Assembly (NCBI GenBank): GCA_964361585.1
Contig: CAYIBB010000001.1
Location: 36,116-77,454, forward strand
Length of the DNA: 41,339 nucleotides
Source: Candidatus Woesearchaeota archaeon
Lineage (GTDB): Archaea; Nanobdellota; Nanobdellia; Pacearchaeales; UBA12030
Direction: 5' to 3'
Shown: positions 1,058 to 19,026 of the stretch, piece after piece
How the letters are laid out: every line of letters starts with the position of its first letter
Position numbering within the stretch: the stretch's first letter is position 1
The notes under the pieces: generated by a model
Told to the model about the DNA's origin: nothing
The model's database searches: none
Seen by the model: the letters and a program-made list of their open reading frames with translations, nothing else
Position numbers and translations under genes: made by a program

Positions 1058-1657
1058 ATGGTAAGAGTACTCATATCCACGATTTATGAGGGAAGGGCCA
1101 ATAAGATTGCAATTAAGGAGCTTTCGCCTCATAAGCTGATTATTGTGGCTAATGAAAAAAGTGACCTTACACAGCACAAGGCCATTTCTGAGCTTAGAGA
1201 ATTCTATAAGGACACTATGGATATTGAAGTGCTGCGCACTTCCGTCTACGATATATACAAAATTGTTAAGGATGTTATAAGTAAGGTTGATAATGAGACA
1301 AAGAAAGGCAACGAGGTGGCAATTCATGTTAGTGAAGGCCGTAAGACGCTTTTCCTAGCCACACTTTTTGCCGCTTATCTGAGAAAGGAAAAGATTAAGG
1401 GGGCTTATTATGTAATTGAAGAGACTTCTGCACTTCTGTCCTTGCCACTGCTTGACCTCGGCCTGCGGGATACAAAAAGAAAGATGCTTCAGGAGATAAT
1501 TAGGGGAAATGATAATATAAATAAGCTCATAAGGAAGCTCAGAGTTAAGAAGACTATGGTATACACTCACATTAATGATTTGAAGAAGGAAGGCTACCTT
1601 ATCAATGATAAAAGGCTTCTAGAGCCCACTGATTTTGGGAAGATTTGTTTGCTTTAG
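1058..1657 (+). CDS. Csa3-like regulator: CARF-type Rossmann-like domain plus C-terminal winged HTH
   Basis: 199-aa ORF. The N-terminal ~130 aa are Rossmann-like (MVRVLISTI..., ...VAIHVSEGRKTLFLATLFAAYL...). The C-terminal part is wHTH-like (...MVYTHINDLKKEGYLINDK...). Size and two-domain layout match the Csa3 / CRISPR-locus-related DNA-binding protein family by recall only. Confidence 0.5.
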   Translation: MVRVLISTIYEGRANKIAIKELSPHKLIIVANEKSDLTQHKAISELREFYKDTMDIEVLRTSVYDIYKIVKDVISKVDNETKKGNEVAIHVSEGRKTLFLATLFAAYLRKEKIKGAYYVIEETSALLSLPLLDLGLRDTKRKMLQEIIRGNDNINKLIRKLRVKKTMVYTHINDLKKEGYLINDKRLLEPTDFGKICLL

Positions 1658-1689: not shown

Positions 1690-2181
1690 TTAGTTCTCAA
1701 CCGATTTTTCTAGTCTTGCGACATATATTCCTAAAGGTAACTCTTCCACCTCTACAATAGTGCTGTTCATTGGGCGGTTTATTGGACATACTACTGTTAC
1801 AACTCCTTCTAAACCTTCTGAGCCTTCTAAAACAAGATTTACTTTACCTCTTAACAAACTTTCCTCTGGGTAATGCCCTGTTACAGGGTCTTTTATTCCC
1901 ACACACATTTGATAAGCGACCAAAACTCCATCTTTTTCAATTGATGAAATTCTTAGGGCATAAAAATCTCTTCTTATTACGTGAACTGATGGAAGGCCAG
2001 AGCCACTTTCATCATATTCTGAGAGTATTTTGTTGACATCTCCAATATCAAAACTTATTTGATACGTCCTCATATGCTCGTCAAAACGCGCTAAAATGTT
2101 TTGAGTGGCTTGTTCCATGGCCTTTTTAATTTGTTCAGCCCTATTCTTGAGTTTAGGATCAGGATTTTCTAGGCTTGCCAT
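1690..2181 (-). CDS. Hypothetical protein
   Basis: 163-aa ORF with non-repetitive composition and no motif I recognise. The antisense ORF 1770..2036 is Leu-rich and looks spurious. Confidence 0.5.
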   Translation of the reverse strand: MASLENPDPKLKNRAEQIKKAMEQATQNILARFDEHMRTYQISFDIGDVNKILSEYDESGSGLPSVHVIRRDFYALRISSIEKDGVLVAYQMCVGIKDPVTGHYPEESLLRGKVNLVLEGSEGLEGVVTVVCPINRPMNSTIVEVEELPLGIYVARLEKSVEN

Positions 2182-2329
2182 ATTACTAAAGAGAAGAAGG
2201 GAATAAAAATATTACTCTTTCTAATCAAAGGCTCTAGAACCTACTCAAAGCATGAGTTCTTATAAGATGTATTATGCGTAGTATTTTACCCCCTTTTGCT
2301 CTTATCGGCTAAAAGTTTTAGCTGTTTGG

Positions 2330-2878
2330 TTAAAAGTTTTCGCCGTAATTCAATACTAAATAAATTACGCCTATTGTGCATGTTTTTTTATAGTGTAGTA
2401 AACTCCATCCCTCAATTAGATTCCACCTATTTGCGTATTCTGCCATATCCAAGATTGGATTTATTATAAAAAGAGGGGAAGATTCTTGTGAAGTTGAAGG
2501 TGGAGCACTACCAGCATTGATAATTGGGATCCTCTGCACTCCTTCAGCTGGCAGGTTCGCCATTTCAATGTATTCCTCAATTGTCTTCTCAGGATCCCTG
2601 ATAGCTAAAACGTCTGAGTAGCTCATTAATATTCTCAATGTATCAGTTAAAGTCTCACCCTTTTTTAGAGAAGTTGCCTCTTGCGAGCCTAGCTCTAGTA
2701 GGCCCATTCCCAATTTATTAGCTGCAAAGCCTAAGAGCAATCTCATTTCTAATGTCTCTCGTGATGGTTCTTTATCAAAGAAAGCCAAACAAAGTAATTT
2801 GCCTTTATTTTTACTAATGTCAAAACTATCAAATTTATGAAAGTGTTTATTTATTTGATCTTTTGTTAGTATATCCAT
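2330..2878 (-). CDS. Aspartate/ornithine carbamoyltransferase-like protein, N-terminal (carbamoyl-phosphate) domain only, with degenerate motifs; possible gene remnant
   Basis: 182 aa. KLLCLAFFDKEPSRETLEMRLLLGFAANKLGMG...LKKGETLTDTLRILMSYSDVLAIRDPE...IPIINAGSAPPSTSQ aligns by eye to the ATCase/OTCase pattern F.EPSTRTR.SFE...LG...KGESL.DT...Y.D.I.IR...P.INAG...HPTQ. However STRTR reads PSRET and HPTQ reads STSQ. The ORF stops about 25 aa into where the second domain should begin. Confidence 0.45.
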   Translation of the reverse strand: MDILTKDQINKHFHKFDSFDISKNKGKLLCLAFFDKEPSRETLEMRLLLGFAANKLGMGLLELGSQEATSLKKGETLTDTLRILMSYSDVLAIRDPEKTIEEYIEMANLPAEGVQRIPIINAGSAPPSTSQESSPLFIINPILDMAEYANRWNLIEGWSLLHYKKTCTIGVIYLVLNYGENF

Positions 2879-2927
2879 AACTATAAAAAAGCAAAAAATT
2901 TAAATAATCTACTGCAAAAAATTATAC

Positions 2928-3599
2928 ATGAGTTTTTTAGAATGGTTGTTTGGAAGAAGAGGTAATGATTTAGAAATTCTTAAGAGTGAAATTAGAAATT
3001 CTTTCTCTAATGTAAAGAGAGATTTCCATAAAGTTAGCAAATGGATAGATCATTTTGATGAGAAACATAAATATCAGGAAAAAAGGCACAAAGAATTACA
3101 TTCACGTCTAGAAAAAATAGAAAATGATCTCGCGGAGCTAAAAAATTTCATTAATTTCTTCACAGAAGACGTAAAAATCAAACTTTCAGGGAGGCTGTCC
3201 AAACAGGCACAAACAGCTGTCCAAACAGGGGTTGTCCAAACGGCTGTCCAAACAGCCGTCCAAACGGCTGTCCAAACACCTTCCTTTATAAATCTCAAGG
3301 GATTAACAATGATAGAAAGAGTAATATTGTGGATTCTTTTAAATACTGATTTGAAATTGAGTTATGAAGATATCTCTGCAATTACTGGCAAGGATAAGTC
3401 GACGATCAGAGGGCAGTTAAATAGTATAAAGCAGAAAAATGAGAGTCTTGTCCAAGAGATCATGGAAAAGGATGGGAAAAAGAGATTTTATATAGAGGAA
3501 GAAGTAAAAGTGAGGGTTCTGAGTGCGCTAAAAGCCGAGGGAAAGGGCAAAAATGAGCCTCTGGAAGAGCAGGAAAGGCCTGTAAAAAGGAAAAAGTGA
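2928..3599 (+). CDS. Coiled-coil plus C-terminal winged-HTH protein with a TAVQ-repeat linker (paralog A)
   Basis: 223-aa ORF. The N-terminus has EIRNSFSNVKRDFHK and a heptad-like region. The centre is QTAVQTGVVQTAVQTAVQTAVQT, encoded by 12-nt DNA repeats. The C-terminus is wHTH-like (LTMIERVILWILLN...LSYEDISAITGKDKSTIRGQLNSIK). A TATA-like aatttaaataat lies about 20-28 nt upstream of the ATG. Confidence 0.6.
   Translation: MSFLEWLFGRRGNDLEILKSEIRNSFSNVKRDFHKVSKWIDHFDEKHKYQEKRHKELHSRLEKIENDLAELKNFINFFTEDVKIKLSGRLSKQAQTAVQTGVVQTAVQTAVQTAVQTPSFINLKGLTMIERVILWILLNTDLKLSYEDISAITGKDKSTIRGQLNSIKQKNESLVQEIMEKDGKKRFYIEEEVKVRVLSALKAEGKGKNEPLEEQERPVKRKK
3193..3277 (+). repeat. Direct-repeat array of GTCCAAAC (6 exact copies plus 1 GCACAAAC variant), mostly 12-nt period, inside CDS 2928..3599
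   Basis: Exact GTCCAAAC at 3197, 3219, 3234, 3246, 3258 and 3270. Variant GCACAAAC at 3207. The last four copies are spaced exactly 12 nt apart. Confidence 0.9.
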
Positions 3600-3670
3600 G
3601 ACTTATTTAGCTTAGATTTGCCTTATATTGATTGTTTTTGAGGATTAGTGCGCTAAATAGGCGACTTATA

Positions 3671-3702
3671 GCACAAACACTCGTCCAAACAGCCGTCCAA
3701 AC
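3671..3702 (+). repeat. Second, non-coding copy of the same array (GCACAAAC, GTCCAAAC, GTCCAAAC; 12-nt period) in the convergent intergenic spacer
   Basis: gcacaaacactcgtccaaacagccgtccaaaca, with units starting at 3671, 3683 and 3695. It lies about 70 nt downstream of the stop of CDS 2928..3599. Confidence 0.85.
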
Positions 3703-3745
3703 ATATCTTAGAGGGAAAAGTGAGTGTTAAATGTGTGCTTTCGTT

Positions 3746-3773
3746 AATTTTCCTTAACACTGAAAGGAAAATT
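3746..3773. repeat. Perfect 10-bp inverted repeat AATTTTCCTT / AAGGAAAATT with an 8-nt loop, between convergent genes
   Basis: aattttcctt-aacactga-aaggaaaatt read directly. It could be a hairpin shared by the two convergent transcripts or a dyad protein-binding site. Confidence 0.7.
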
Positions 3774-3843
3774 GAGTCATAGAACTCGAAAAAATAGGGA
3801 AAAGAGTGAATTTAGAGTGATTTTAGCCTGATTTTAAGGAGGA

Positions 3844-4491
3844 TTAAAGTGAATTAGTGAGGGATTCTCTAAATTTTATTAAGTTCTCGAGCGTTTCAAG
3901 GCGTCGAAATTCAGGAGTGATACTAAGGAAAACCTGCTTGTTATCGACTCTTCTCTTCAAAATTGGGGCTTTCTTGTCTATTAAATTCTTAATATGATCT
4001 CTCACAGTGCTGCCCGAAAGCTTGATTCTTACGGCTATTTCCCTATAGTTTATGGGTCTTTTCAACTCTTCTTCAAGTTGATAAAGTGCAAAAAATATCA
4101 AAAATTCCTGTTTCGTAAATGTATTAAATACCTCTCCAAGTTCTGTTTTTGCCATCTCAATATCCTCAGAAGTGGCCTCGATATGTCGAAACATCTGTCG
4201 AACTGTTGTCGAACTGTTGTCGAACTGTTGTCGAACTGTCGAAACCCCTTCATTTCCTGTGGAAGAAGGTTTAGAAAGCCCAATTTGACCAATTTCGGTT
4301 TTCATTGTCGAGGATCTGTCGAAGTGCTGTCGAGGATCTGTCGAAGACTCATTTAGCCTATTTATTACTACTTTTAATGCATTTTTTATAACACTAAGGT
4401 CATTTTTTACAGAAAAAATTTCTTCTCTCAATAAATCCATATCTTGTTTTACTTTAGCAAAAGATTCCCGAATTTCCTCTTCCCTTACCAT
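3844..4491 (-). CDS. Coiled-coil plus C-terminal winged-HTH protein with a repeat-encoded linker (paralog B)
   Basis: 215-aa ORF. The N-terminus EIRESFAKVKQDMDLL parallels EIRNSFSNVKRDFHK of paralog A. The centre is repeat-encoded (STDPRQHFDRSST...STVRQQFDNSSTTVRQMF). The C-terminus is wHTH-like (FTKQEFLIFFALYQ...INYREIAVRIKLSGSTVRDHIKNLI). TATA-like tataaatatatttaaat lies upstream on the minus strand. Confidence 0.6.
   Translation of the reverse strand: MVREEEIRESFAKVKQDMDLLREEIFSVKNDLSVIKNALKVVINRLNESSTDPRQHFDRSSTMKTEIGQIGLSKPSSTGNEGVSTVRQQFDNSSTTVRQMFRHIEATSEDIEMAKTELGEVFNTFTKQEFLIFFALYQLEEELKRPINYREIAVRIKLSGSTVRDHIKNLIDKKAPILKRRVDNKQVFLSITPEFRRLETLENLIKFRESLTNSL
4184..4345. repeat. Array of 10 TGTCGA[AG] units (plus-strand reading), predominantly 11-nt period, in two blocks inside CDS 3844..4491
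   Basis: Units start at 4184, 4196, 4207, 4218, 4229 and 4237 (block 1, including three exact tandem copies of ctgttgtcgaa). Block 2 units start at 4306, 4317, 4328 and 4339, forming two copies of a 22-nt unit tgtcgaggatctgtcgaag. Confidence 0.9.
4245..4269 (-). promoter_or_regulatory. Origin-recognition-box (ORB)-like element inside CDS 3844..4491
   Basis: The minus strand reads CTTCCACAGGAAATGAAGGGG: a TTCCA-N-GGAAA dyad followed by a G-run, like mini-ORB/ORB boxes of archaeal origins. It matches the box next to orc1/cdc6 (12404-12428) at 20 of 25 positions, including an exact 11-mer tcatttcctgt. Confidence 0.45.
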
Positions 4492-4578
4492 AACTTTTTT
4501 ACATGGTGAAGATTTAAATATATTTATACAAAATAAGACAGATTATGTTACTACTTTGAAATTGTCTTAATTTTACGG

Positions 4579-4872
4579 CTATTTAGCAACTGTCTTATAC
4601 GCTCTATAGATATCCTTAGAAAGCCTCCATCTTTCTCGCCTTAAGAACTCAATTCCGCGCCTGTTTTTGTTTATTCTCACTACAAAGTTCTCGGTATGAA
4701 GCTCGCGGAGTAGTTTTTTTGTGAATTCCTCATCTCTTGCAATATCCCTAGCTATGTGAGAAGTAAAGGCCGTCTTAGGGAAATTCTCGTATAAGAAGGC
4801 GAGGATTGTTTCCTTTATTTTCTTTATTTTTTCCTGGGAGATTTTGGGCATCCGGCCTAAATGAGTATGCAT
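4579..4872 (-). CDS. Small winged-HTH DNA-binding protein
   Basis: 97-aa ORF. ILAFLYENFPKTAFTSHIARDIARDEEFTKKLLRELHTENFVVR has a wHTH-like pattern. The TATA-like ttttaaat abuts the first ATG, so the true (leaderless) start may be the Met at 4851 (MPKISQEK...). Confidence 0.5.
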   Translation of the reverse strand: MHTHLGRMPKISQEKIKKIKETILAFLYENFPKTAFTSHIARDIARDEEFTKKLLRELHTENFVVRINKNRRGIEFLRRERWRLSKDIYRAYKTVAK

Positions 4873-4972
4873 ATTTAAAATAATCGGTAATACGAAAAAA
4901 GTCTTATGGGTGTTATTAGTATAAAAAGAAAATATATAAAGTCTTTAGACTTGAGCTACGGGTCCTATAAAA

Positions 4973-7591
4973 ATGATTAAGATACTAAGTAAGCCAAGGG
5001 AAGAGAAAGAGCTAAGAGAGGCCTTAGATCCGATAGTCAGGGATTGGTTTTTCTCAAAGTTCAAGGAATTTTCACTACCTCAGCTTTATGGTGTCATGCC
5101 TATTCACGAGAGAAAGAATATACTTATAAGTGCCCCGACTGGAGGCACTAAGACTCTGACTGCATTCCTCTCAATTTTAAATTACTTAGTGAAACTTGCA
5201 CGCAAGGTAGAGCTTGAAGATAAAGTCTATTGTATTTATAATTCTCCGCTCAAGGCACTTAATAATGACATTTTCGTGAACCTTATTACACCTCTTGAAG
5301 AGATTAAAGAGATTGCTAAGAAATACGGAGTTGCCCTACAAGAGATAAGAATTGCAGTAAGGACGGGGGATACTCCTACAGCTGAGAAAGTTAAGATGCT
5401 TGCTAGGCCTCCACATATACTTATAACAACTCCTGAGACTCTGGCTATTGTATTGAGTTCGAGAAAATTTATTGACTATCTTAAGGCAGTTGAGTTCCTT
5501 ATTGTGGACGAAATTCATGCTCTTGCCAGCAACAAAAGAGGTGTTCACTTAAGTCTTAGTCTTGAGCGTCTTGAGGGAATTTCTTCCATTCCTCCTGTAA
5601 GAATAGGGCTTTCTGCTACTATAGCTCCATTGGAGGAGATTGCTAAGTTTCTAGTTGGTCTAGACGATGGTAAAGAAAGAGATTGTGAAGTGGCTGATGT
5701 TCAATTCTCTAAGGAGCATGACCTAAAAGTTCTTTGCCCAGTTCCTGATTTAATTGATACTTCTTCTGGGCAACTTCACCGTGGATTGTATGGACTTATT
5801 GACAGGCTGATACAGGAACATAAGACTACCTTAATTTTTACTAACACAAGAAGTGCTACTGAAAGAGTTGTTAATCACCTTAAAGAGATGTTCCCAAAAA
5901 AGTACTTGGAGGAGATAGGGGCTCATCACTCAAGCCTGAGTAAGAAACATCGCTTTGATATTGAAAAGGGGCTTAGAGAAGGCAAGCTCAAGGTGGTTGT
6001 GTGTTCCACTTCGCTGGAGTTGGGAATTGACGTAGGTTACATTGATCTTGTTATCTTGCTCGGAAGTCCAAAAAGTGTTGCTCGAGCCTTGCAAAGAAGT
6101 GGGAGAGCAGGGCACAAGTTACATGACATTTCGAAGAGCAGACTCATAGTTCTAGATCGCGATGACCTTGTAGAATGTGGCGTTCTCCTTAAAGAGGCAA
6201 TAGAAAAGAAAATTGACAAGGTGCAGATTCCTAAAAATTGCCTCGATGTCCTATGTCAGCAGATTTATGGAATAGCAATAGCAGAAAGAACAAATATTAA
6301 TGACCTATTTAAGATTATTAGGAGAAGTTACTGTTATAAAGACCTCAATAGGGAGGAGTTTATGGATGTAATCTCTTACCTTGCTGGCGACTTTGCCGAA
6401 CTTGAATCCAAGAATGTGTATGCTAAGATATGGTATGATTCTGAGACAGGAATGATAGGCAAGCGGGGGAAGTTAGCAAGAATGATTTATATGACAAATA
6501 TTGGAACAATTCCAGAAGAATCTTTTATTAATATTGTTGTTAATGCTGGAGGTAGAGAGGAAAAAGTCGGCGTAGTTGATGAGGCATTCCTCGAGCGACT
6601 ACAGAAAAGGGATGTCTTTGTACTCGGAGGCCATAAGTATGAATTTCTTTACACAAGGGGTATGAATGCCTATGTCTCTGGTGGAGTGCAGAGGTCGCCT
6701 ACTATTCCTTCGTGGTTTTCCGAGATGTTGCCTCTAAGCTTTGATCTTGCTCTTGAAATTCAGCGTTTCAGGAAGCTCATGGACGAAAAATTCTCGAGAA
6801 AGCGAGGAGAGCAGGATATCAAGGAATTTATTAGAAAATTCCTTTATGTGGATGAGAATGCTGTTAATGCTATTTACAACTATTTTAGAGAGCAGTATTA
6901 CTATGCTAAGATCCCTAATGAAAATAGGCTCCTAATTGAGCACTACACAGACATGGATGGGAAAAAGTACATAATTTTCCATACTCTTTATGGCCGCCGC
7001 GTTAATGATGCGCTCAGCAGGGCTTATGGTTTTCTTGTGGGAAAGCTCAGTAAGAGGGATGTGGAAATAGGAATTAGTGATAATGGATTCTTCATTGCTT
7101 CTTATGATAAGATGCAGATTGAGAGAGCCATCCAATTATTAAATTCAAAGAACTTGCGAGAAGTGCTTGAACAAGCAGTTGAGAAGACTGAAATGTTCAA
7201 GAGAAGATTTAGACACTGTGCCACTAGAAGTTTAATGATCTTACGCAGTTACATGGGGAGACATAAAAGTGTTGGCAAGCAACATCTAAAGTCTGGATTC
7301 CTTCTGGGGGCTGTAAGAAAATTAGATGAGAATTTTCCTATCTTGAGGGAAACTAAAAGGGAAGTATTACATGATTTAATGGATATTGAGAATGCCACCC
7401 AAGTACTGAAATGGCTTGAAGATGGAAAGATTAAGATTGAAAAAATAAATGTTGACGTTCCATCTCCATTTGCCTTCAACTTAATTATGCAGGGCTATGC
7501 TGACTTGCTTAAAATCGAGGATAAGCTTGAATTCCTTAAGCGTATGCATAAGGAAGTTTTGGCAAGGATTGAGAAGGATGTTGTAAGATAA
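4973..7591 (+). CDS. lhr: Lhr-type ATP-dependent SF2 helicase
   Basis: 872 aa. Helicase motifs: I APTGGTKT (variant), II VDEIH, III LSAT, VI QRSGRAGH. A long Lhr-type C-terminal extension is present. Confidence 0.85.
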   Translation: MIKILSKPREEKELREALDPIVRDWFFSKFKEFSLPQLYGVMPIHERKNILISAPTGGTKTLTAFLSILNYLVKLARKVELEDKVYCIYNSPLKALNNDIFVNLITPLEEIKEIAKKYGVALQEIRIAVRTGDTPTAEKVKMLARPPHILITTPETLAIVLSSRKFIDYLKAVEFLIVDEIHALASNKRGVHLSLSLERLEGISSIPPVRIGLSATIAPLEEIAKFLVGLDDGKERDCEVADVQFSKEHDLKVLCPVPDLIDTSSGQLHRGLYGLIDRLIQEHKTTLIFTNTRSATERVVNHLKEMFPKKYLEEIGAHHSSLSKKHRFDIEKGLREGKLKVVVCSTSLELGIDVGYIDLVILLGSPKSVARALQRSGRAGHKLHDISKSRLIVLDRDDLVECGVLLKEAIEKKIDKVQIPKNCLDVLCQQIYGIAIAERTNINDLFKIIRRSYCYKDLNREEFMDVISYLAGDFAELESKNVYAKIWYDSETGMIGKRGKLARMIYMTNIGTIPEESFINIVVNAGGREEKVGVVDEAFLERLQKRDVFVLGGHKYEFLYTRGMNAYVSGGVQRSPTIPSWFSEMLPLSFDLALEIQRFRKLMDEKFSRKRGEQDIKEFIRKFLYVDENAVNAIYNYFREQYYYAKIPNENRLLIEHYTDMDGKKYIIFHTLYGRRVNDALSRAYGFLVGKLSKRDVEIGISDNGFFIASYDKMQIERAIQLLNSKNLREVLEQAVEKTEMFKRRFRHCATRSLMILRSYMGRHKSVGKQHLKSGFLLGAVRKLDENFPILRETKREVLHDLMDIENATQVLKWLEDGKIKIEKINVDVPSPFAFNLIMQGYADLLKIEDKLEFLKRMHKEVLARIEKDVVR

Positions 7592-12288: not shown

Positions 12289-12403
12289 GCTTTATCTCTG
12301 GAACTTAAATTTATAAATTTTTCTATAAATCAACCCTTATTACGTATTTTATTGGTTTTATAAAACCGAATAACTTCGGAATAGCCTGATTTTCGTATAC
12401 ACA

Positions 12404-12428
12404 CCCCCTCATTTCCTGTAGAAACAAG
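12404..12428 (-). promoter_or_regulatory. ORB-like box (minus strand: GTTTCTACAGGAAATGAGGGGG)
   Basis: Dyad-like TTTC-N-GGAAA followed by G5. Near-duplicate of 4245-4269. Confidence 0.5.
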
Positions 12429-12482
12429 ATTTATAAAATACATAACTTTAGAGTATTTTATTATTTATTTTATAAATATTTA

Positions 12483-12507
12483 TATAATATAATATAATAT
12501 AATATAA
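12483..12507. repeat. (TATAA)x5 microsatellite in the AT-rich core (candidate unwinding element)
   Basis: Five exact tandem tataa units read directly. Confidence 0.9.
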
Positions 12508-12677
12508 TAGTTATAAAATAATGTTAGAGTAAATTTATCTACTTCGGCGTTATAATGTTTATAAATTAATATGTTTAAAGAACGTGATGTTTCAAAATAA
12601 CTCTTTTTCTATATAATTGTTTTTAAACAACTTTCTTGTAAGTCCACAAGTAATAAAGTCATAAGTATTCCGAAGGA

Positions 12678-12700
12678 CATTCCAAAGGAAAGCTAGGGGG
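12678..12700 (+). promoter_or_regulatory. Weak second ORB-like box (CATTCCAAAGGAAAGCTAGGGGG), inverted relative to 12404-12428; may instead be only the cdc6 Shine-Dalgarno region
   Basis: About 16 of 23 positions match the reverse complement of the first box. However the G-run (GGGGGAGAGG) sits immediately 5' of the ATG at 12706. Confidence 0.3.
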
Positions 12701-12705
12701 AGAGG

Positions 12706-13902
12706 ATGAATCTTGATAAGATATTTAATCATTTTACAGAAACGTCGATTTTCAATAGTAAGAAAGTATTACAAGTAAGCTATACCCCTGAAGTTGTTTC
12801 ACATAGAGAAGAACAAATTTCACAAATTGCGAGTATAATGGCCCCTTCTCTAAGACTTGAAAAACCATCGAACCTTTTTTTATATGGCAAGACTGGGACT
12901 GGAAAAACTTTGAGTGTAAAGTATGTAGGGCAACAACTTAATAATAAGGCGAAAGAAAAGAACACAAATGTGAACTTAATTTATATAAACTGCAAACTTA
13001 AGAAAGTGGCTGATACTGAATATAGAATACTTTACGAGCTTATCAGGACTTTAGGTAAGGAAGTACCTGCAACAGGATTACCAACAGAACAACTTTATAA
13101 AATATTTCTCGATATTGTTGATAAAGAAGAACAAGTTCTTATAATAATTTTGGATGAAATAGATCAAGCAGTAAAAAAGATTGGTGATGAGTTCTTGTAC
13201 AATTTTACTAGAATAGATCATTTGAAAAAAAGCCAAATCTCTTTAGTGGGAATATCAAATGATTTAGTATTTATAGAAACGCTCGATCCCCGAGTGCGGA
13301 GTTCTCTCGGCGAAGAAGAGATAGTGTTTCCACCTTATGATGCTATACAGCTGAAGGATATTTTAGAAGCAAGGTCTAAAGTAGCTTTTAAAGATGGTAT
13401 TGTTGCAGAGGGTGTAATAGAAAAATGTGCAGCATATGCCGCAGGCGAGCATGGCGACGCTAGAAGAGCTCTCGATCTGTTGAGAGTTGCCGGCGAGTTA
13501 GTCGAAAGAGATTGTAAGAGTAAAATCACTCTTGAGTATATAGATAAGGCTGAAGAGAAAATTGAGAAAGAAAAGATTCTTGATATTACTATAAATCAAC
13601 CTAAACAGTTTCAATTAACACTGCTTTCCATAATTGAGAAATCTAAAGAAACAAATAAAGTATTTTATACGGGCGATATATATGAGGGATACGAGAAACT
13701 TTGTAATAACCTTAGATTTAAACCACTAACCCAACGAAGAGTCGGCGATATTATTTCAGAATTTGACATGCTCGGACTTATAAATGCCCGAGTTATTAGT
13801 AGTGGAAGATATGGCCGAAAGCGTGAAATAAGGGTGACAATTCCTAAAAACTTAGTTGGGAAGGTAGAAGAAGCACTTCTCAAGTCTTTAAATTTAAAGT
13901 AA
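12706..13902 (+). CDS. cdc6: Orc1/Cdc6 replication initiator
   Basis: 398 aa. AAA+ Walker A LYGKTGTGKT and Walker B IIILDEID, with a C-terminal winged-helix region. Confidence 0.95.
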   Translation: MNLDKIFNHFTETSIFNSKKVLQVSYTPEVVSHREEQISQIASIMAPSLRLEKPSNLFLYGKTGTGKTLSVKYVGQQLNNKAKEKNTNVNLIYINCKLKKVADTEYRILYELIRTLGKEVPATGLPTEQLYKIFLDIVDKEEQVLIIILDEIDQAVKKIGDEFLYNFTRIDHLKKSQISLVGISNDLVFIETLDPRVRSSLGEEEIVFPPYDAIQLKDILEARSKVAFKDGIVAEGVIEKCAAYAAGEHGDARRALDLLRVAGELVERDCKSKITLEYIDKAEEKIEKEKILDITINQPKQFQLTLLSIIEKSKETNKVFYTGDIYEGYEKLCNNLRFKPLTQRRVGDIISEFDMLGLINARVISSGRYGRKREIRVTIPKNLVGKVEEALLKSLNLK

Positions 13903-13950
13903 ATTTTTATACACATCATTCAAAGATTAAATTAATTGTGGAGTGAGAAT

Positions 13951-15555
13951 ATGGATCTGGTAGAAAAATTTTTAGAGGAAGGGTATCTTCTTGAACCCAA
14001 ATTATTTGGGCAAATTAGAGAAGAAGAGGTTGAAGAGTTCTTAGAAGACATCAAGAGAAAAAGTGAAACCCCATTAATAATAACCGAAGATATTTATTCT
14101 TCTTTTATAGTATCTAAAAACAAAAAAGAAACTTACGATGAAGTGCAGATCGAGAATCTGAAAAGTAAATCTCTGGATTCTATAAAAGAAAGGCAAATTC
14201 TGAAGTTGGAGCAAGAAGTATTTGAAGTTGAAGTTCCTGAAGCTAAAGTTTCGACATCACAGGAATTAGAATTGGAGGTTAAAGATTCTGGATCTGATGA
14301 TGAAGAAACAGATAAAGAGGTTAAAATAAATAGTGTGAGAGTTCTCTATACTTACAACGAAGATCCCAAAAAATTTACTGTCGAGGACTTCACATCTTAT
14401 TTTAAGAGTCGCTATAGTGTCTTGCGTGATATACTGCTGGCAAGGAACGAACTCGAAAATGTCACTAGTATCAATAAAATAAGTTCAGAAAAAAGCCAAA
14501 TAAGTATCATTGGTAGTATACTTGATAAAAGAATTACGAAAAATGGGAACTTCATGCTGAATATTGAAGATCAAACCGGGATCGCACGAGTTATTATCTC
14601 AAAAAATTCAGAACTTTTCGAACTTGCTGATAACTTAACTTATGATGAAATTTTAGGTTTAAAGTGTGTGGGGAATAATGAATTTCTATTTGCTAATAAA
14701 GTAGTATTCCCTGATGCTTACAAATCAAAAAAGAAAGGAAAGGGAAAGGAGGGTTACGCTCTATTTATCTCTGATTTACATGTTGGGAGTAATAAATTCC
14801 TCGAGAAAGAACTTCTAAAATTTGTCAAATGGATTAATGAGAGAAGTGATAGTGTAGCAGATAAAGTAAAATATATCTTTATTGTAGGCGACTTGGTTGA
14901 TGGTATAGGGGTCTATCCTGGGCAAGAAGATGAACTTCTGATTAGAGACATATACGAACAGTACGAGGAATGTGCTTACATACTTTCACAAATAAGGAAA
15001 GACATAAAATTAATTGTTATCCCAGGAAATCATGATGCTACGAGACTTTCTGAGCCACAGCCAATTCTTGATGAAAGTCTGAGCAAACCCTTATACAGAC
15101 TAAAAAATCTCATCATGCTTAGTAACCCTACTTTTATGAATATTGTTGCAGAGGAGAATTTCGAGGGTTATGATCTTTTACTATACCATGGGTACTCATT
15201 AGATTACTATGCTAATAACATCAAAGCAATGATAGGGAAAGCCTATAAGAGTCCCGACATTCTTCTGAAGTATTTACTACAGAAAAGGCATCTTGCGCCA
15301 ACACATGGCAGCACTGCTTATGTTCCTCTTGATCGAGATCCTTTAGTTATAGGAAAAGTTCCTGACTTATTTGTGTCAGCGCATTTACATAAGACTGCTA
15401 TAAATTACTATAATGGGGTTTCACTCGTGGCCTGTTCTTGCTGGCAAGCTCAAACAGATTTCCAGAAAAAGATGGGCCATGAACCGGACCCCTGTAAAGT
15501 CCCTGTTCTAAATCTAAAAGACGGAAAAATTACTCTTTTAGATTTTTCTAACTGA
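13951..15555 (+). CDS. polB: DNA polymerase II (family D) small subunit DP1
   Basis: Phosphoesterase motifs SDLHVGS, GDLVDG, PGNHD and LYHGY, plus an N-terminal acidic region. I place the start at ATG 13951, preceded by GGAGTGAG. The track start at 13936 is a TTG. Confidence 0.9.
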   Translation: MDLVEKFLEEGYLLEPKLFGQIREEEVEEFLEDIKRKSETPLIITEDIYSSFIVSKNKKETYDEVQIENLKSKSLDSIKERQILKLEQEVFEVEVPEAKVSTSQELELEVKDSGSDDEETDKEVKINSVRVLYTYNEDPKKFTVEDFTSYFKSRYSVLRDILLARNELENVTSINKISSEKSQISIIGSILDKRITKNGNFMLNIEDQTGIARVIISKNSELFELADNLTYDEILGLKCVGNNEFLFANKVVFPDAYKSKKKGKGKEGYALFISDLHVGSNKFLEKELLKFVKWINERSDSVADKVKYIFIVGDLVDGIGVYPGQEDELLIRDIYEQYEECAYILSQIRKDIKLIVIPGNHDATRLSEPQPILDESLSKPLYRLKNLIMLSNPTFMNIVAEENFEGYDLLLYHGYSLDYYANNIKAMIGKAYKSPDILLKYLLQKRHLAPTHGSTAYVPLDRDPLVIGKVPDLFVSAHLHKTAINYYNGVSLVACSCWQAQTDFQKKMGHEPDPCKVPVLNLKDGKITLLDFSN

Positions 15556-15648: not shown

Positions 15649-18600
15649 ATGTACCTTAAAGATATTGAGAGGCAAGTAAGGGTTGCTTATTCTTTAGCTG
15701 CGGAGGCTAGAAGTAAAGGCCTCGATCCAATTAGCCGTGTTGAGGTTCCACTCGCAACAGATCTTCCCGAACGAGTTACTGGATTAGTGTCAGCGTTGCT
15801 GCCGCAAGTTAAGGATATTAGAATAGAAAAAAGAATTCGGGAGTTAGAAAAACAATTTGGTTTTTTAGATCCTGCTGTTGCCTTCGTGATAGCGGATGAA
15901 ATAGCAACAGAGAAATTTTGTAAGTTCACTAGTAAAATCGAGGCAATAGAGGCAGGAATAAGGATAGGCTTTGCGTATCTAACTTTAGGTAGTGTTGCAT
16001 CCCCCTTAGAAGGTTTTACTAAACTTGAATTAGGCAAGAATGCTAAAGGCGAAGACTATTTTATTTTATTTTATAGCGGTCCAATAAGATCCGCAGGAGG
16101 AACTGCAGCTTCTATCTCTGTAGTTTTAGCAGATTATTTAAGAGAGAAATATGGATATGGGAAGTATGATCCTAACGAAGATGAAGTAGGAAGAGCGGTA
16201 ATAGAAGTATTGGACTACCATGAAAGAATAACTAACTTACAATACCTTCCAAGCGAGCAAGAAATTTCGTACTTGGCAAGCAACTTACCTGTACAAATCT
16301 CGGGTGACCCAACTGAAGATTTAGAAGTTTCCCTTTACAAGAACATGGCTCGTGTTAATACCACTAGGCTTAGGGGGGGTTTCTGTTTAGTAATGGCTGA
16401 ATGTTTGGCTCAAAAAGCTTCTAAAGTTTCGGCAATAGTGCAGAAATTAAGAAGTAAGGATTTTGTTTTGAGTGATTGGGATTTTCTCGAGGAACTTGCA
16501 GCAATGCAGAAAAAGAAAAAATCTGAAAAGAAGGAAGATGTTGCTAATTACATCAAAGATATTGTCGCAGGCAGGCCTATTCTGGCACACCCCTCATATC
16601 AAGGTGGATTCCGTTTACGTTACGGAAGAACAAGAGCCTCAGGCTACAGTTGTGTGGCAATCCATACTACACTTCCTTATTTAATAAATAATTTCATTGC
16701 TGTTGGTACGCAGCTAAGAATGGAAAAACCAGGCAAGAGTGCAGCTGTAACATTCTGCGACAGTATTGAGGGCCCAATAATTAAGCTAGATAATAGCACA
16801 GTATTGCAGGTTTCAAACATTGAGGAAGCAAAGCGCATATCTTCGCAAGTAAAGGAAATTTTGTATTTGGGAGACATACTGATAAGTTATGGTGACTTCT
16901 ACAATAGAAATCATACTTTGCTACCTTGTGGCTTTAATGAAGAATGGTGGCAGCAGGAACTCGCTGCAAGAGGTGTTAAGGTTGAAAGAAAAGCAAGTTT
17001 TGAGGATGCTGTAACTCTATCTCGTGAGCATGGAGTAGCATTACATCCTTCATACACTCATTATTGGACTGCTATAAACGCGTTTCAGTTCCGCGAGCTC
17101 TTGAAATGGCTACTAACAGCAAAAATTGATGATGAGGTAGTTTTAACCTATCGGGGTGAAGAGTTAAAGCGAGTTCTAGAACTATTAGGGGTCCCTCATA
17201 TAGTAATTGCTAATAAGATAGTTATCAACAAGGCTGCGAAGAGTTTCCTGTTCAATTTAGGAAATTGCAAAAAAGATTCTCTAGATGAGGTTATAGAAAA
17301 AATAGATTCAGGAAATTATTCCGATGTTTTATCTTTGGTAAATGAACTTTCTGAAGTGAAAATTAAAGATAAAGCTGGAAGTTTTATTGGGGCTAGGATG
17401 GGAAGGCCAGAGAAGGCAAAATTGAGGAAGCTTACTGGTAACCCTAATGTTTTATTTCCAGTGGGCGAGGAAGGAGGGCGACTTCGAAGTTTTCAGGAAG
17501 CTACTAACGGCGGAATAGTGAGAGCAGATTTTCCAATTTATTACTGTAGTAAGTGCAAACGTGAAACCATCTATTATGTATGTGAAGAATGCGATAGTAT
17601 TACTCGCAGGCTTTATCTCTGCCCAACTTGTAATAAAAAATCACAGGAAAAGTGTGAGTTGCATAAGAAAGGAATTCCCTACGAGGAAAGAGCATTAGAT
17701 ATTAAGCGTTATTTAGTTAGTGCAAAGAAAAAGTTGAATTTTACTGATGCTGAAATGCCTCCTCTAATCAAGGGTGTTAAGGGTACTTCCTCAGCATTTC
17801 ACATTCCAGAACACCTTGCCAAGGGAATTTTAAGAGCGCTGTATGGACTTACTGTTAACAAAGATGGTACTATGAGGATCGATTTAACCGAACTTCCGTT
17901 GACACATTTTAAACCTCTAGAGATAGGAACCCCTGTAAAACTTTTAAGAGCCCTTGGGTATACTAAAGATATCGATGGTAAAGAATTAGTGCACGAAAAT
18001 CAGGTTCTTGAGTTGAAGGAACACGATATAGTGGTTCCTGCAGGCGAAAGTCTTGAGGAGAGAGTAGATTCCGTTCTTATAAAAATGTGTAATTTTATTG
18101 ACAACCTTCTCGTTAGATTTTATGGACTAAGACTTTTTTATGAGGTTAAGAGTCGTGAGGATTTAGTGGGCAAGCTTGTGGTCGGACTTGCCCCTCATAC
18201 TTCTGTTGGAGTAATTGGAAGAATTATTGGCTTTTCATCAGCTCAAGCACTTTATGCACATCCACTATGGCACGCTGCTATGCGTAGAGATGCGGATGGT
18301 GATGAAACCTCTCTGATATTGCTACTTGACGTGTTAATAAATTTTTCAAAATCTTATTTACCAGATCATAGAGGCAGTACACAAGATGCACCACTTATAT
18401 TAAACACGAGGATTAAGGCTAATGAGGTCGACGATATGGTTTTTGACATTGAAACGGTCTTCGAGTACCCACTAGAGCTTTATCAAAAAGCCGAGAATTT
18501 TGCAAACCCTCGCGAAGTTAAAATACCTCAGGTAAGAGACTTTCTCGAGAGTCAGATAAGAATGGCTTACACACATGAAATTACTAATCTTAATCACGGT

Positions 18601-19026
18601 GTCATGCAGTCAGCGTATAAGAAAATTGCTACTATGGGAGAAAAAGTGGTTAAGCAAATGGAAGTTGCTGAGAGGATTCGCGCTGTGGATACTGCGGATG
18701 TCGCCCGTCTCGTTATTGAGCGACATTTTATTAGAGATATAAGAGGAAACTTAAGAAAGTTCAGCAGCCAGCAGTTCCGTTGTGTGAAATGCAATACTAA
18801 ATACAGAAGGCCACCCCTTTATGGCTCCTGCAGGTGTGGAGGCAGACTTATTTTCACAATAGCTGAAGGAGGTATTGTTAAGTATCTTGAGCCTGCTCTG
18901 GAACTTGCAAGGAAATATGAAGTTTCTCCATACATCAAACAGTCTCTGGAACTAACTAAGATGCGTATTGAGAGTATATTTGGAAGAGAGAAGGAAAAGC
19001 AAGTTGCCTTGCAGAAATGGTTTTGA
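15649..19026 (+). CDS. polC: DNA polymerase II (family D) large subunit DP2
   Basis: 1125 aa. Cys clusters CSKCKRETIYYVCEEC...CPTCNKK and CVKCNTKYRRPP..GSCRCGG. No intein-sized insertion. Follows DP1 on the same strand. Confidence 0.95.
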   Translation: MYLKDIERQVRVAYSLAAEARSKGLDPISRVEVPLATDLPERVTGLVSALLPQVKDIRIEKRIRELEKQFGFLDPAVAFVIADEIATEKFCKFTSKIEAIEAGIRIGFAYLTLGSVASPLEGFTKLELGKNAKGEDYFILFYSGPIRSAGGTAASISVVLADYLREKYGYGKYDPNEDEVGRAVIEVLDYHERITNLQYLPSEQEISYLASNLPVQISGDPTEDLEVSLYKNMARVNTTRLRGGFCLVMAECLAQKASKVSAIVQKLRSKDFVLSDWDFLEELAAMQKKKKSEKKEDVANYIKDIVAGRPILAHPSYQGGFRLRYGRTRASGYSCVAIHTTLPYLINNFIAVGTQLRMEKPGKSAAVTFCDSIEGPIIKLDNSTVLQVSNIEEAKRISSQVKEILYLGDILISYGDFYNRNHTLLPCGFNEEWWQQELAARGVKVERKASFEDAVTLSREHGVALHPSYTHYWTAINAFQFRELLKWLLTAKIDDEVVLTYRGEELKRVLELLGVPHIVIANKIVINKAAKSFLFNLGNCKKDSLDEVIEKIDSGNYSDVLSLVNELSEVKIKDKAGSFIGARMGRPEKAKLRKLTGNPNVLFPVGEEGGRLRSFQEATNGGIVRADFPIYYCSKCKRETIYYVCEECDSITRRLYLCPTCNKKSQEKCELHKKGIPYEERALDIKRYLVSAKKKLNFTDAEMPPLIKGVKGTSSAFHIPEHLAKGILRALYGLTVNKDGTMRIDLTELPLTHFKPLEIGTPVKLLRALGYTKDIDGKELVHENQVLELKEHDIVVPAGESLEERVDSVLIKMCNFIDNLLVRFYGLRLFYEVKSREDLVGKLVVGLAPHTSVGVIGRIIGFSSAQALYAHPLWHAAMRRDADGDETSLILLLDVLINFSKSYLPDHRGSTQDAPLILNTRIKANEVDDMVFDIETVFEYPLELYQKAENFANPREVKIPQVRDFLESQIRMAYTHEITNLNHGVMQSAYKKIATMGEKVVKQMEVAERIRAVDTADVARLVIERHFIRDIRGNLRKFSSQQFRCVKCNTKYRRPPLYGSCRCGGRLIFTIAEGGIVKYLEPALELARKYEVSPYIKQSLELTKMRIESIFGREKEKQVALQKWF

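Follow-up and report, generated by a model that had tools for sequence, protein, structure and literature searches.

Sites that act in cis from within the gene of their own trans-acting factor are a design that is already known. In protein O of bacteriophage lambda the iteron-encoded part is the inter-domain linker, in Bacillus subtilis a parS site lies inside spo0J near oriC, and the tubC of pBtoxis has 12-bp iterons. The lambda ori sits in the middle of gene O, where extra repeats add residues to the protein and synonymous alteration is possible (PMC7466680), and the placing of oriV inside repC and other initiator genes has been called 'uncommon but not exceptional' (PMC3155836). In systems of the TubR-tubC type, a small dimeric DNA binder (TubR, a winged helix-turn-helix protein, wHTH) assembles cooperatively on short direct-repeat arrays, covers the promoter and autoregulates (PMC6009700). 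Among archaea, the Thermococcales gene dp1 contains an internal cluster of origin recognition boxes (ORBs) and mini-ORBs, bound in Pyrococcus by Cdc6/Orc1 in vivo and in vitro (PMC1904270), and an ORB cluster downstream of Haloarcula oriC2 has been proposed to regulate that origin negatively (PMC4010727). The present study concerns two convergent genes, here called A and B, each with an array of short DNA repeats in its centre, within a stretch of 41,339 nucleotides from a Candidatus Woesearchaeota archaeon (assembly GCA_964361585.1, contig CAYIBB010000001.1, positions 36,116 to 77,454), hereafter the window.

To our knowledge, the cell-cycle biology of DPANN archaea is almost unknown. The reading of the locus that we favour, and hold to be rather probable, is that A and B are conserved convergent paralogs of the origin neighbourhood, in which the DNA coding for the protein linkers serves as a cis-acting element. 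In A this element is an array of ~12-bp TGTYCAAACAG units, and in B it is an ORB flanked by short, fast-evolving A+C-rich repeats. An earlier note on the window had drawn attention to the repeats, regarding them as arrays of protein-binding sites rather than the product of selection on a flexible linker.

Results

The array in gene A is conserved as DNA

Motif occurrence was assessed in loci of ~8.6 kb and in the 41-kb window, in which the word GTCCAAAC has 10 exact copies against 0.86 expected, a count reached in 0 of 100 shuffles. Six of these copies lie in gene A (at 3197, 3219, 3234, 3246, 3258 and 3270), separated by 22, 15, 12, 12 and 12 nt; the 22-nt step spans a degenerate unit, cacaaacag, and the period assigned by Tandem Repeats Finder (TRF) is 12. 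The counts of the earlier note, six of this word in A and ten of TGTCGAR in B, are real, and the window totals of both words lie beyond shuffle expectation. Its spacing of 11-12 nt, about one helical turn, compares with periods of 12 in A and 11 in B. Helical phasing is a weak argument, since 12 nt in A equals a period of four codons and the typical periods of B genes are 4, 8 or 12. The features of the locus are collected in Table 1.

Table 1. Coordinates of the A/B locus and of the origin neighbourhood, as positions of the window; protein architectures are predicted.
Feature	Position	Strand	Description
Gene A	2928-3599	+	223 aa; long N-terminal helix, disordered linker, C-terminal winged helix
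Array within the open reading frame of A	3194-3280	+	7 units of ~12 nt, consensus gcTGTCCAAACAGg; weight-matrix scores 19.7-25.7
Third repeat family, AAAAGTGAG(AGTTA)	3506-3514, 3592-3600, 3716-3724; variants 3803-3862	+	3' end of A and A-B spacer
A-unit copies in the A-B spacer	3671-3704	+	Non-coding; 2.5 copies, gcacaaacactcGTCCAAACagccGTCCAAACat; exact GTCCAAAC at 3683 and 3695
Gene B	3844-4491	-	215 aa; helix, disordered linker, second helix, wHTH; paralog of A
B array 1	4184-4243	+	TGTCGAA x6 (coding strand TTCGACA); adjoins the G-string side of the ORB
ORB-type element in B	4243-4265	-	CTTCCACAGGAAATGAAGGGGTT; codes the invariant linker S-x-G-N-x-G-V
B array 2	4306-4345	+	TGTCGAG/TGTCGAA x4, period 11; opposite side of the ORB
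Small wHTH-like gene (sW)	4579-4872	-	97 aa; third member of the trio A+ B- sW-
Predicted chromosomal oriC	12289-12705	.	Inverted ORB-like elements round AT-rich tandem repeats
orc1/cdc6	12706-13902	+	Cdc6_C 83.6 bits, Cdc6_lid 79.6 bits; directly after oriC
PolD small subunit	13936-15555		Follows cdc6; DNA_pol_E_B match
PolD large subunit	15649-19026		Named from its position after the small subunit

The array of A codes for linker residues 90-118; one frame yields LSKQ from it, another xVQT. Codon usage and position of the word were analysed in 64 orthologs that share 43-55% identity with A and come from different species; these species are related, so that the counts are not independent events. 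Across the 191 VQT motifs of the 64 genes, the glutamine codon is CAA in every case (191/191; background 60-68%). The valine codon is GTC in 55% and GTT in 41% (together 96%), against a background of 8-11% for GTC, and GTA accounts for 1% compared with 22-26%. For threonine, ACA (89%) and ACG (10.5%) together reach 99.5%, leaving 0.5% for ACT, whose background is 31-34%. Where a four-fold degenerate codon precedes the valine, it ends in T in 166 of 174 cases; over the rest of the genes the share of T is 42% (p 6e-40). Two frames share the word TGTYYAAACA in 46/64 genes, xVQT being its reading in one and LSKQ, LFKQ or VFKQ in the other; in this second frame LSKQ is written CTG TCC AAA CAG, and LFKQ/VFKQ is CTG/GTG TTT AAA CAG. 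The array extends beyond the VQT run, comprising 7-9 units in orthologs, and its copy number differs between relatives. An antisense open reading frame (ORF) over the array (3074-3298, minus strand; WTAVWTAVWTAV...) is a mechanical by-product of the repeats and not a gene.

Copies of the A word also occur in non-coding DNA. At least one copy lies within 400 nt upstream of A in 48/64 loci and at least two in 36/64, with a background density of 0.07 per kb. The position profile confines the word and its relatives (CTGTTTAAACAG, GTGTTTAAA and GTTTGGACAG) to the intervals -400..0 and +200..+400 of the A orthologs, with almost none in the remaining sequence up to 4 kb to either side. In upstream spacers 300-350 nt long there are up to 8 copies, often as doublets spaced 12 nt, and one copy, in either orientation, abuts the transcription factor B recognition element (BRE) and TATA box, directly upstream of cgaaacatttataaag. 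A short direct-repeat array at or near the gene's own promoter is thus found in the 36 orthologs with at least two upstream copies; in the window, the copies are intragenic and downstream. The downstream segment in the A-B spacer matches the in-ORF segment 3205-3226 at 19 of 22 positions. It has no counterpart in the 63 other loci analysed, where the bins downstream of A are empty, and a weight-matrix scan of the 41-kb window gave no further strong A-unit match beyond the array and these spacer copies.

The word kept at synonymous sites, its reading in two frames and its non-coding copies show that selection on the A array acts on the nucleotides and that the array is a DNA-level element, as the earlier note had argued. 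The comparison of homologous loci that it had called for gave the expected outcome, the 64 orthologs keeping the word as nucleotides while its copy number varies. The opposite pattern, a linker kept through synonymous, non-repetitive DNA, belonged to the outcome that the note would have taken as a refutation, and the orthologs show the reverse.

Ordinary low-complexity coding repeats, sitting in a flexible linker and kept alike by slippage and gene conversion, would likewise encode predicted disordered segments and vary in copy number, as these do. Such repeats would, however, vary freely at synonymous sites and have no non-coding copies, neither of which applies to the A array. Synonymous sites are fixed over 64 species at ~45% protein identity, the word is used in two frames, it turns up again in neighbouring non-coding DNA and hardly anywhere else, and B has an ORB embedded in it. 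The codon, position and upstream-copy data already contradict this explanation, which we regard as extremely improbable. A constraint on the mRNA, whether for small hairpins (CUGU-CCAA-ACAG) or for recognition by an RNA-binding protein that adjusts how A is translated, would fit the partial self-complementarity of the A unit and the folding energy of the A-array RNA (-35.2 kcal/mol, against -25.3 for shuffles; z -3.0). This account is nevertheless very unlikely: RNA of the B array folds no better than shuffles (z +0.24), Rfam gives no family match, and copies in both orientations lie upstream of the BRE/TATA, outside the mRNA. RNA folding, of which the excess in A is modest, is rejected as the main explanation because these upstream copies are likely untranscribed.

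Wider relatives were also inspected. At locus L083 a lineage-specific word, ttaaacaaaccaac, is present in both the ORF and the promoter. Two more distant A-like proteins carry other repeats: one (L086, 118-717) has in-ORF alternating palindromes, GTTCGAAC / GTTCATGAAC, read as FMNVRT, and the other (L087, 1110-1691) has five in-ORF copies of GTTCAATC. Their recognition helices differ as well (TIRRHISD and TTRRHIND), a hint that, in the family at large, changes in the word go along with changes in the protein.

A candidate origin recognition box between the arrays of gene B

The published ORB consensus reads CTTCCAGTGGAAACGAAAGGGGT and GTTCCAGTGGAAATGA-AGGGGT (PMC4153887, PMC1868953), with core motifs that include 'TTCC' and 'GAA' (PMC1904270; PMC4153887 Table 2). 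The element of B, CTTCCACAGGAAATGAAGGGGTT, has 0 mismatches to the ORB pattern TCCANNGGAAANNNNGGGG; it contains the dyad TTCCA-N2-GGAAA and, at the consensus distance from it, the G-string GGGGT. TTCC and GGAAA are invariant in 74/74 B orthologs, as is GGGG, and the consensus over the 74 genes is tTTCCAyaGGAAATrrnGGGGTTCCAACAG. Its segment GGAAATGAAGGGGT is identical to ORB3 of 'Ca. M. intestinalis', GGAAATGA-AGGGGT (PMC4153887), and the element resembles the ORB of the window's own oriC, TCTACAGGAAATGAGGGGG. The pattern was found once per locus, in the convergent gene downstream of A, in 73/80 genome loci. On these features the element classifies as a canonical archaeal ORB, at which Orc1/Cdc6 would be expected to bind. 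It is single and lies inside an ORF, and the arrangement of an origin, with a pair of ORBs flanking an AT-rich unwinding element next to orc1/cdc6, is not present at 4243-4265.

The repeats on both sides of the ORB belong to the word TGTCGAR, which has 16 copies in the window against 3.9 expected (0/100 shuffles), ten of them within gene B. Their spacing is 12, 11, 11, 11 and 8 nt, followed by a gap of 63 nt and then by 11, 11 and 11 nt. TRF gave a period of 11 for both arrays, with 4 perfect copies at 4196-4239 in the first and 3.5 copies at 4306-4344 in the second; as this period is not divisible by three, successive units fall into each of the three frames of the ORF (TVRQQFDNSSTTVRQ). The 11-nt unit of the window is ACAGTTCGACA, and the nearest relatives use TTCGGCAC. 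More generally, the A+C-rich repeats that follow the G-string in B orthologs are mostly (ACAG)n or (CAAACAGA)n, and also (ACAAACCA)n. The best array period in the 74 B genes is 4 (25 genes), 12 (22), 8 (15) or 11 (11), so that 51/74 have a period (4, 8 or 11 nt) that does not divide into whole codons. The linker also shows synonymous bias (ACA 76% vs 48%, GAC 69% vs 28%), and typical B arrays have the core CAAACAG in common with A, but on the opposite strand.

The prevalence of periods outside the triplet (51/74), the perfect tandem copies (4 x 11 nt in the window, (ACAG)9 in L026) and the variation of copy number among relatives are what one would also expect of contingency tracts, in which 4-, 8- and 11-nt units slip and frameshifts switch B on and off, the sequence mattering only as a slippery one. 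We consider such phase variation quite improbable, given that the arrays are read through intact in 74 B ORFs, that the A units (12 nt) stay in frame, and that slippage leaves the conserved ORB, the synonymous constancy of the A word and the non-coding copies unexplained.

Some further observations concern B. Three words TAAGACA(G/A), two direct and one inverted, lie at 4536-4600, a segment around the putative promoter of B and the 3' end of the small wHTH gene. They are similar to the TTCGACA(G) unit within the ORF and could constitute an operator. The word CTTCGG, of which 3 of the window's 8 copies (12374, 12542 and 12670) fall within the 420-nt oriC spacer, is similar to the units that the B arrays of this sub-lineage contain (TTCGGCAC / TTCGACA). 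Locus L083 (4001-5399, 6943-7752) has a B-like gene of 189 aa with an ORB, and with TTAAACAAAC / TTCAACA in the ORF and in its own upstream spacer; after it comes an A-like paralog whose linker is acidic and free of repeats. This locus adjoins the gene of arginyl-tRNA synthetase and a p142 homolog, and an integrase gene lies ~2.4 kb away. In the protein collection, the B call (P0121) is a 138-aa fragment running from T78 (window 4258), inside the ORB, on a 2670-nt contig; an assembly of this organism apparently breaks at the repeat/ORB region of B, and genes of the A/B type can thus break assemblies.

Architecture and kinship of the two proteins

A and B are convergent neighbours among the ORFs of the window. 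Pairwise BLASTP between them gave no significant match (E 0.018-0.25). Comparison of their profiles with hhalign (108 A relatives, 74 B relatives) gave a probability of 97.3% and E 2e-11 over 161 columns, in an alignment that covers the N-terminal motif, the linker and the wHTH; this match shows the two genes to be true paralogs of one architecture. The earlier note had proposed just such a pair of paralogous wHTH genes, and the profile match, the AlphaFold models and the N-terminal motif, confirmed in both proteins, bear it out.

In the model of A, a helix (11-86) is followed by a disordered stretch (87-122; predicted local distance difference test, pLDDT, <50) and a confident wHTH (125-206), with AlphaFold2 pLDDT >90 in blocks spanning 131-190. 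That of B has a helix (2-48), a disordered stretch (~49-92), a second helix (93-123) and then the wHTH. In view of the predicted disorder at 87-122 and ~49-92, the repeats of both genes encode linkers that are modelled as disordered. The linker of A, though disordered, holds V111, Q112, T113 and Q116, which are among the most invariant columns of the family. These most conserved residues (VQT...VQT in A and S-x-G-N-x-G-V in B) are not to be read as functional motifs of the protein. In the recognition helix of A, residues T159, R161, G162, Q163 and N165 are invariant.

The best Foldseek matches of A are Lrs14/AbfR2, SmtB (1smt) and a wHTH of the MarR type (MepR), and 6cmv matches the C-terminal domain (E 1.1e-4 with Foldseek, 5.4e-4 with profiles). 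B passes the Pfam family HTH_24 (26.0 bits, cut-off 21.9) and remains under the cut-off of MarR_2 (12.2 bits, cut-off 27). No Pfam family exceeds its gathering score for A, which gave only sub-threshold coiled-coil/HTH noise. The models, Foldseek and HTH_24 thus place the fold with the winged helix-turn-helix of MarR/Lrs14-type regulators, and neither protein matches a curated Pfam profile of a MarR/Lrs14-type family.

Relatives of A number >1083 in the protein collection, belonging to Nanoarchaeota or Pacearchaeota wherever named; a relative is encoded in 502 species-level DPANN genomes, and clustering of the family at 50% identity left 537 representatives. This distribution marks the window as DNA of a DPANN archaeon of the Woese-/Pacearchaeota type. 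For B, the word-indexed protein search returned 11 relatives only and under-reports the family. When counted by ORB pattern and tblastn, B is present, convergent to A, in 73/80 genome loci, and because this ORB-bearing gene recurs downstream of A, B is the universal partner of A. A scan of viral contigs with the B alignment found no relatives, leaving a virus origin of B unsupported, though the B-like gene of L083 lies near an integrase.

Origin neighbourhood and conserved gene order

The oriC of the window has ORB-like elements at 12404-12422 (minus strand) and 12681-12699 (plus strand), with AT-rich tandem repeats (12459-12526) between them, and the same layout of ORB pairs round an unwinding element is repeated in 12 orthologous loci. 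In Pyrococcus, oriC, orc1/cdc6 and the PolD genes stand in the same succession as here. The small wHTH gene sW has tblastn matches in 73 loci, with conserved order and weak matches to Pfam wHTH families. The conserved order is A+ B- sW- (in roughly half, Lhr and others intervene) p142- p86- oriC Cdc6+ DP1+, and Cdc6 falls within the examined flank (up to ~4 kb beyond A) in 23/80 genome loci. Judged by this synteny, the trio of A, B and sW is linked to the replication origin. Of the roles proposed in the earlier note (autoregulation, partition or replication control), the last gains support from the ORB in B and the conserved linkage to oriC and cdc6. That note had missed the ORB between the B arrays, the B periods that are not multiples of 3, and the synteny of the trio with oriC-cdc6-polD (at 12.3-19 kb in the window).

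The same linkage and the canonical ORB suit the main rival explanation, in which arrays and ORB are accessory sites for Orc1/Cdc6 (or another trans factor such as sW), a second cluster of ORB type with a titrating or regulating effect on the initiator, and A and B are mere hosts. Precedents exist in the Cdc6-bound ORB/mini-ORB cluster inside Thermococcales dp1 (PMC1904270) and in the downstream ORB cluster of Haloarcula oriC2, a proposed negative regulator of that origin (PMC4010727). Moreover, hhalign pairs ...GVQT of A with ...GVPT of B beside the ORB G-string, and on sequence comparison the A unit may derive from ORB-flanking DNA (GGNGTYCAAACAG vs GGGGTTCCAACAG). The A word is, however, essentially absent from the 12 oriC spacers (one has TGTTTAAACA, another CTGTTTA), the necessary site of action of Orc1, and this argues for a different binder. 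In addition, A-type copies abut A's own BRE/TATA, the usual position of a gene-specific regulator, and the invariant recognition helix of A parallels the invariant word. We therefore regard accessory initiator sites as unlikely. Phase variation, mRNA structure and low-complexity repeats explain less than either this account or the one we favour.

The third repeat family, AAAAGTGAG, is present in 1-5 copies in all 64 loci, always in the orientation of A and at +400..+1000 from the A start; within the 3' end of A it is read as KVRV, and in another frame as KSEG/KSES. In at least the five loci inspected, a reverse-oriented cluster of aactctcactttttcac lies ~2 kb upstream of A, in a spacer beside a gene of ~273 aa that was judged by eye to encode a tyrosine recombinase. 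A search of 2500-5000 against Rfam found no family, only a sub-threshold SNORD57-like C/D-box match in the A-B spacer (3807-3867, plus strand; 20.9 bits against a gathering score of 47 bits, E 0.43), which is probably due to chance.

Pfam scanning of the neighbours in the window identified an OTCase_N fragment, a Csa3-like protein, Lhr, a metallophosphatase and a PRC-barrel protein; neither among these nor in the conserved synteny was a partner nucleoside triphosphatase (NTPase; ParA, ParM or TubZ) found near A/B. The ORF upstream of A (2330-2878, minus strand, 182 aa) has only the carbamoyl-phosphate-binding N-domain of an aspartate/ornithine carbamoyltransferase, and that at 1058-1657 (plus strand) encodes a Csa3/HFX_2341-like Rossmann domain with an HTH, with no CRISPR array nearby.

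Discussion

The arrays are conserved as DNA, so the two genes probably double as docking sites for proteins. Under the reading that we favour, the wHTH of A, dimerised via its long helix, would bind the 12-bp units cooperatively, both at the promoter and within its own gene, and this binding would bring about autoregulation and a fixed nucleoprotein complex. Orc1/Cdc6 would bind the ORB inside B, and B and/or the small wHTH protein would bind the repeats that flank it. The combined origin-proximal accessory complex could then modulate the availability of the initiator, the firing of the origin or its positioning. That A binds its own units is suggested by its invariant recognition helix, by the copy abutting the BRE/TATA and by the near-absence of the word from oriC.

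Several observations weigh against these proposals. The binders of the arrays are ones that we infer. A single ORB within a gene is not an origin, a single mini-ORB gave no stable Cdc6 binding in Pyrococcus (PMC1904270), and in the window the A/B pair lies 8 kb from oriC and is not adjacent to it. The upstream spacer of A in the window is 49 nt long and has no A word, as is also the case in its closest relatives L001, L002, L003 and L012; promoter autoregulation is therefore not universal. The variants of the word (CC or TT) in the ORF and upstream co-vary weakly (Spearman 0.375, p 0.008; Fisher not significant), in a test made on species without phylogenetic independence, and the A-array RNA, as given above, folds better than its shuffles. 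For B, self-binding is less convincing because the typical arrays are microsatellite-like and vary between lineages while the recognition helix, LSESSIRDYI, is constant, and because the array repeats are absent from B promoters.

More tentatively, with a confidence that falls somewhat short of that in the cis-acting role, A, B and sW together with the TGTYCAAACAG arrays, the AAAAGTGAG repeats and the ORB of B may form an undescribed origin-associated nucleoprotein system. If so, every DPANN archaeon of the Woese-/Pacearchaeota type would have in it a replication-control locus or a chromosomal centromere. The cis sites would lie where the genes of their own trans factors code for the linkers, so that protein and site would be inherited and co-evolve as a unit. 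The locus points to a widely conserved, uncharacterised component of the origin region in DPANN archaea, and it provides an unusually clear case, from comparative genomics, of coding DNA conserved for a role of the DNA and not of the peptide. It also supplies defined sites and proteins for binding assays.

Nothing specific on the A/B family or on DPANN origin elements emerged from literature searches. The statement of the earlier note that no family with this organisation had been described stands for the protein family, as far as searched, and fails for the design (PMC7466680, PMC3155836, PMC1904270). Lambda O is a close parallel in form, as in both cases a DNA-binding protein is encoded by a gene with a direct-repeat array at its centre. 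The lambda iterons, however, are inverted-repeat sites of ~19 bp accompanied by an AT-rich unwinding region, and the A/B units measure 11-12 bp. No such region adjoins the A/B arrays in the flanking sequence, whose composition is ordinary for this genome (GC 35% over 2001-4000), unlike that of 12440-12530. A and B furthermore have a separate canonical oriC and cdc6 nearby, their DNA-binding domain is C-terminal, and their locus, found in 502 species, belongs to a cellular chromosome and has no sequence relationship to lambda. The repC of repABC plasmids and RepA of the pAD1/pAMbeta1 type are alike in keeping the cis site inside the trans-factor gene. They differ in being parts of plasmid replicons, and repC is repeat-free, with only an A+T-rich region; a replication start within A or B, as in initiator genes that contain oriV, is unsupported by the present sequence analysis.

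As in the centromere-binding systems TubR-tubC, ParR-parC and omega, which use iteron arrays, short sites would be bound by a small protein, but no partner NTPase accompanies A/B and their arrays lie inside ORFs. With chromosomal parS sites the locus shares its closeness to the replication origin. The archaeal wHTH proteins of the Lrs14/AbfR and MarR/ArsR types, small DNA binders, give the best fold and profile matches to the C-terminal domain, to which A and B add a long N-terminal helix (47-76 residues), a repeat-encoded linker and an origin-linked position. UBP/ucm of Sulfolobus (PMC12141716) was rejected as a relative, since it binds DNA via beta-hairpins and not a winged helix.

Thermococcales dp1 and Haloarcula oriC2 resemble the present locus in having ORBs within or next to a gene, at a distance of a few kb from oriC and cdc6, with order-wide conservation. 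Unlike dp1, the host gene here encodes a wHTH DNA-binding protein and not a polymerase subunit. Compared with both clusters, B has one full ORB flanked by short non-ORB repeats, and its paralogous partner A carries a different 12-bp array, which is also found at its own promoter. What is new, then, is the protein family, the pairing of paralogs with different embedded elements, the presence of an ORB in a regulator gene and the breadth of conservation.

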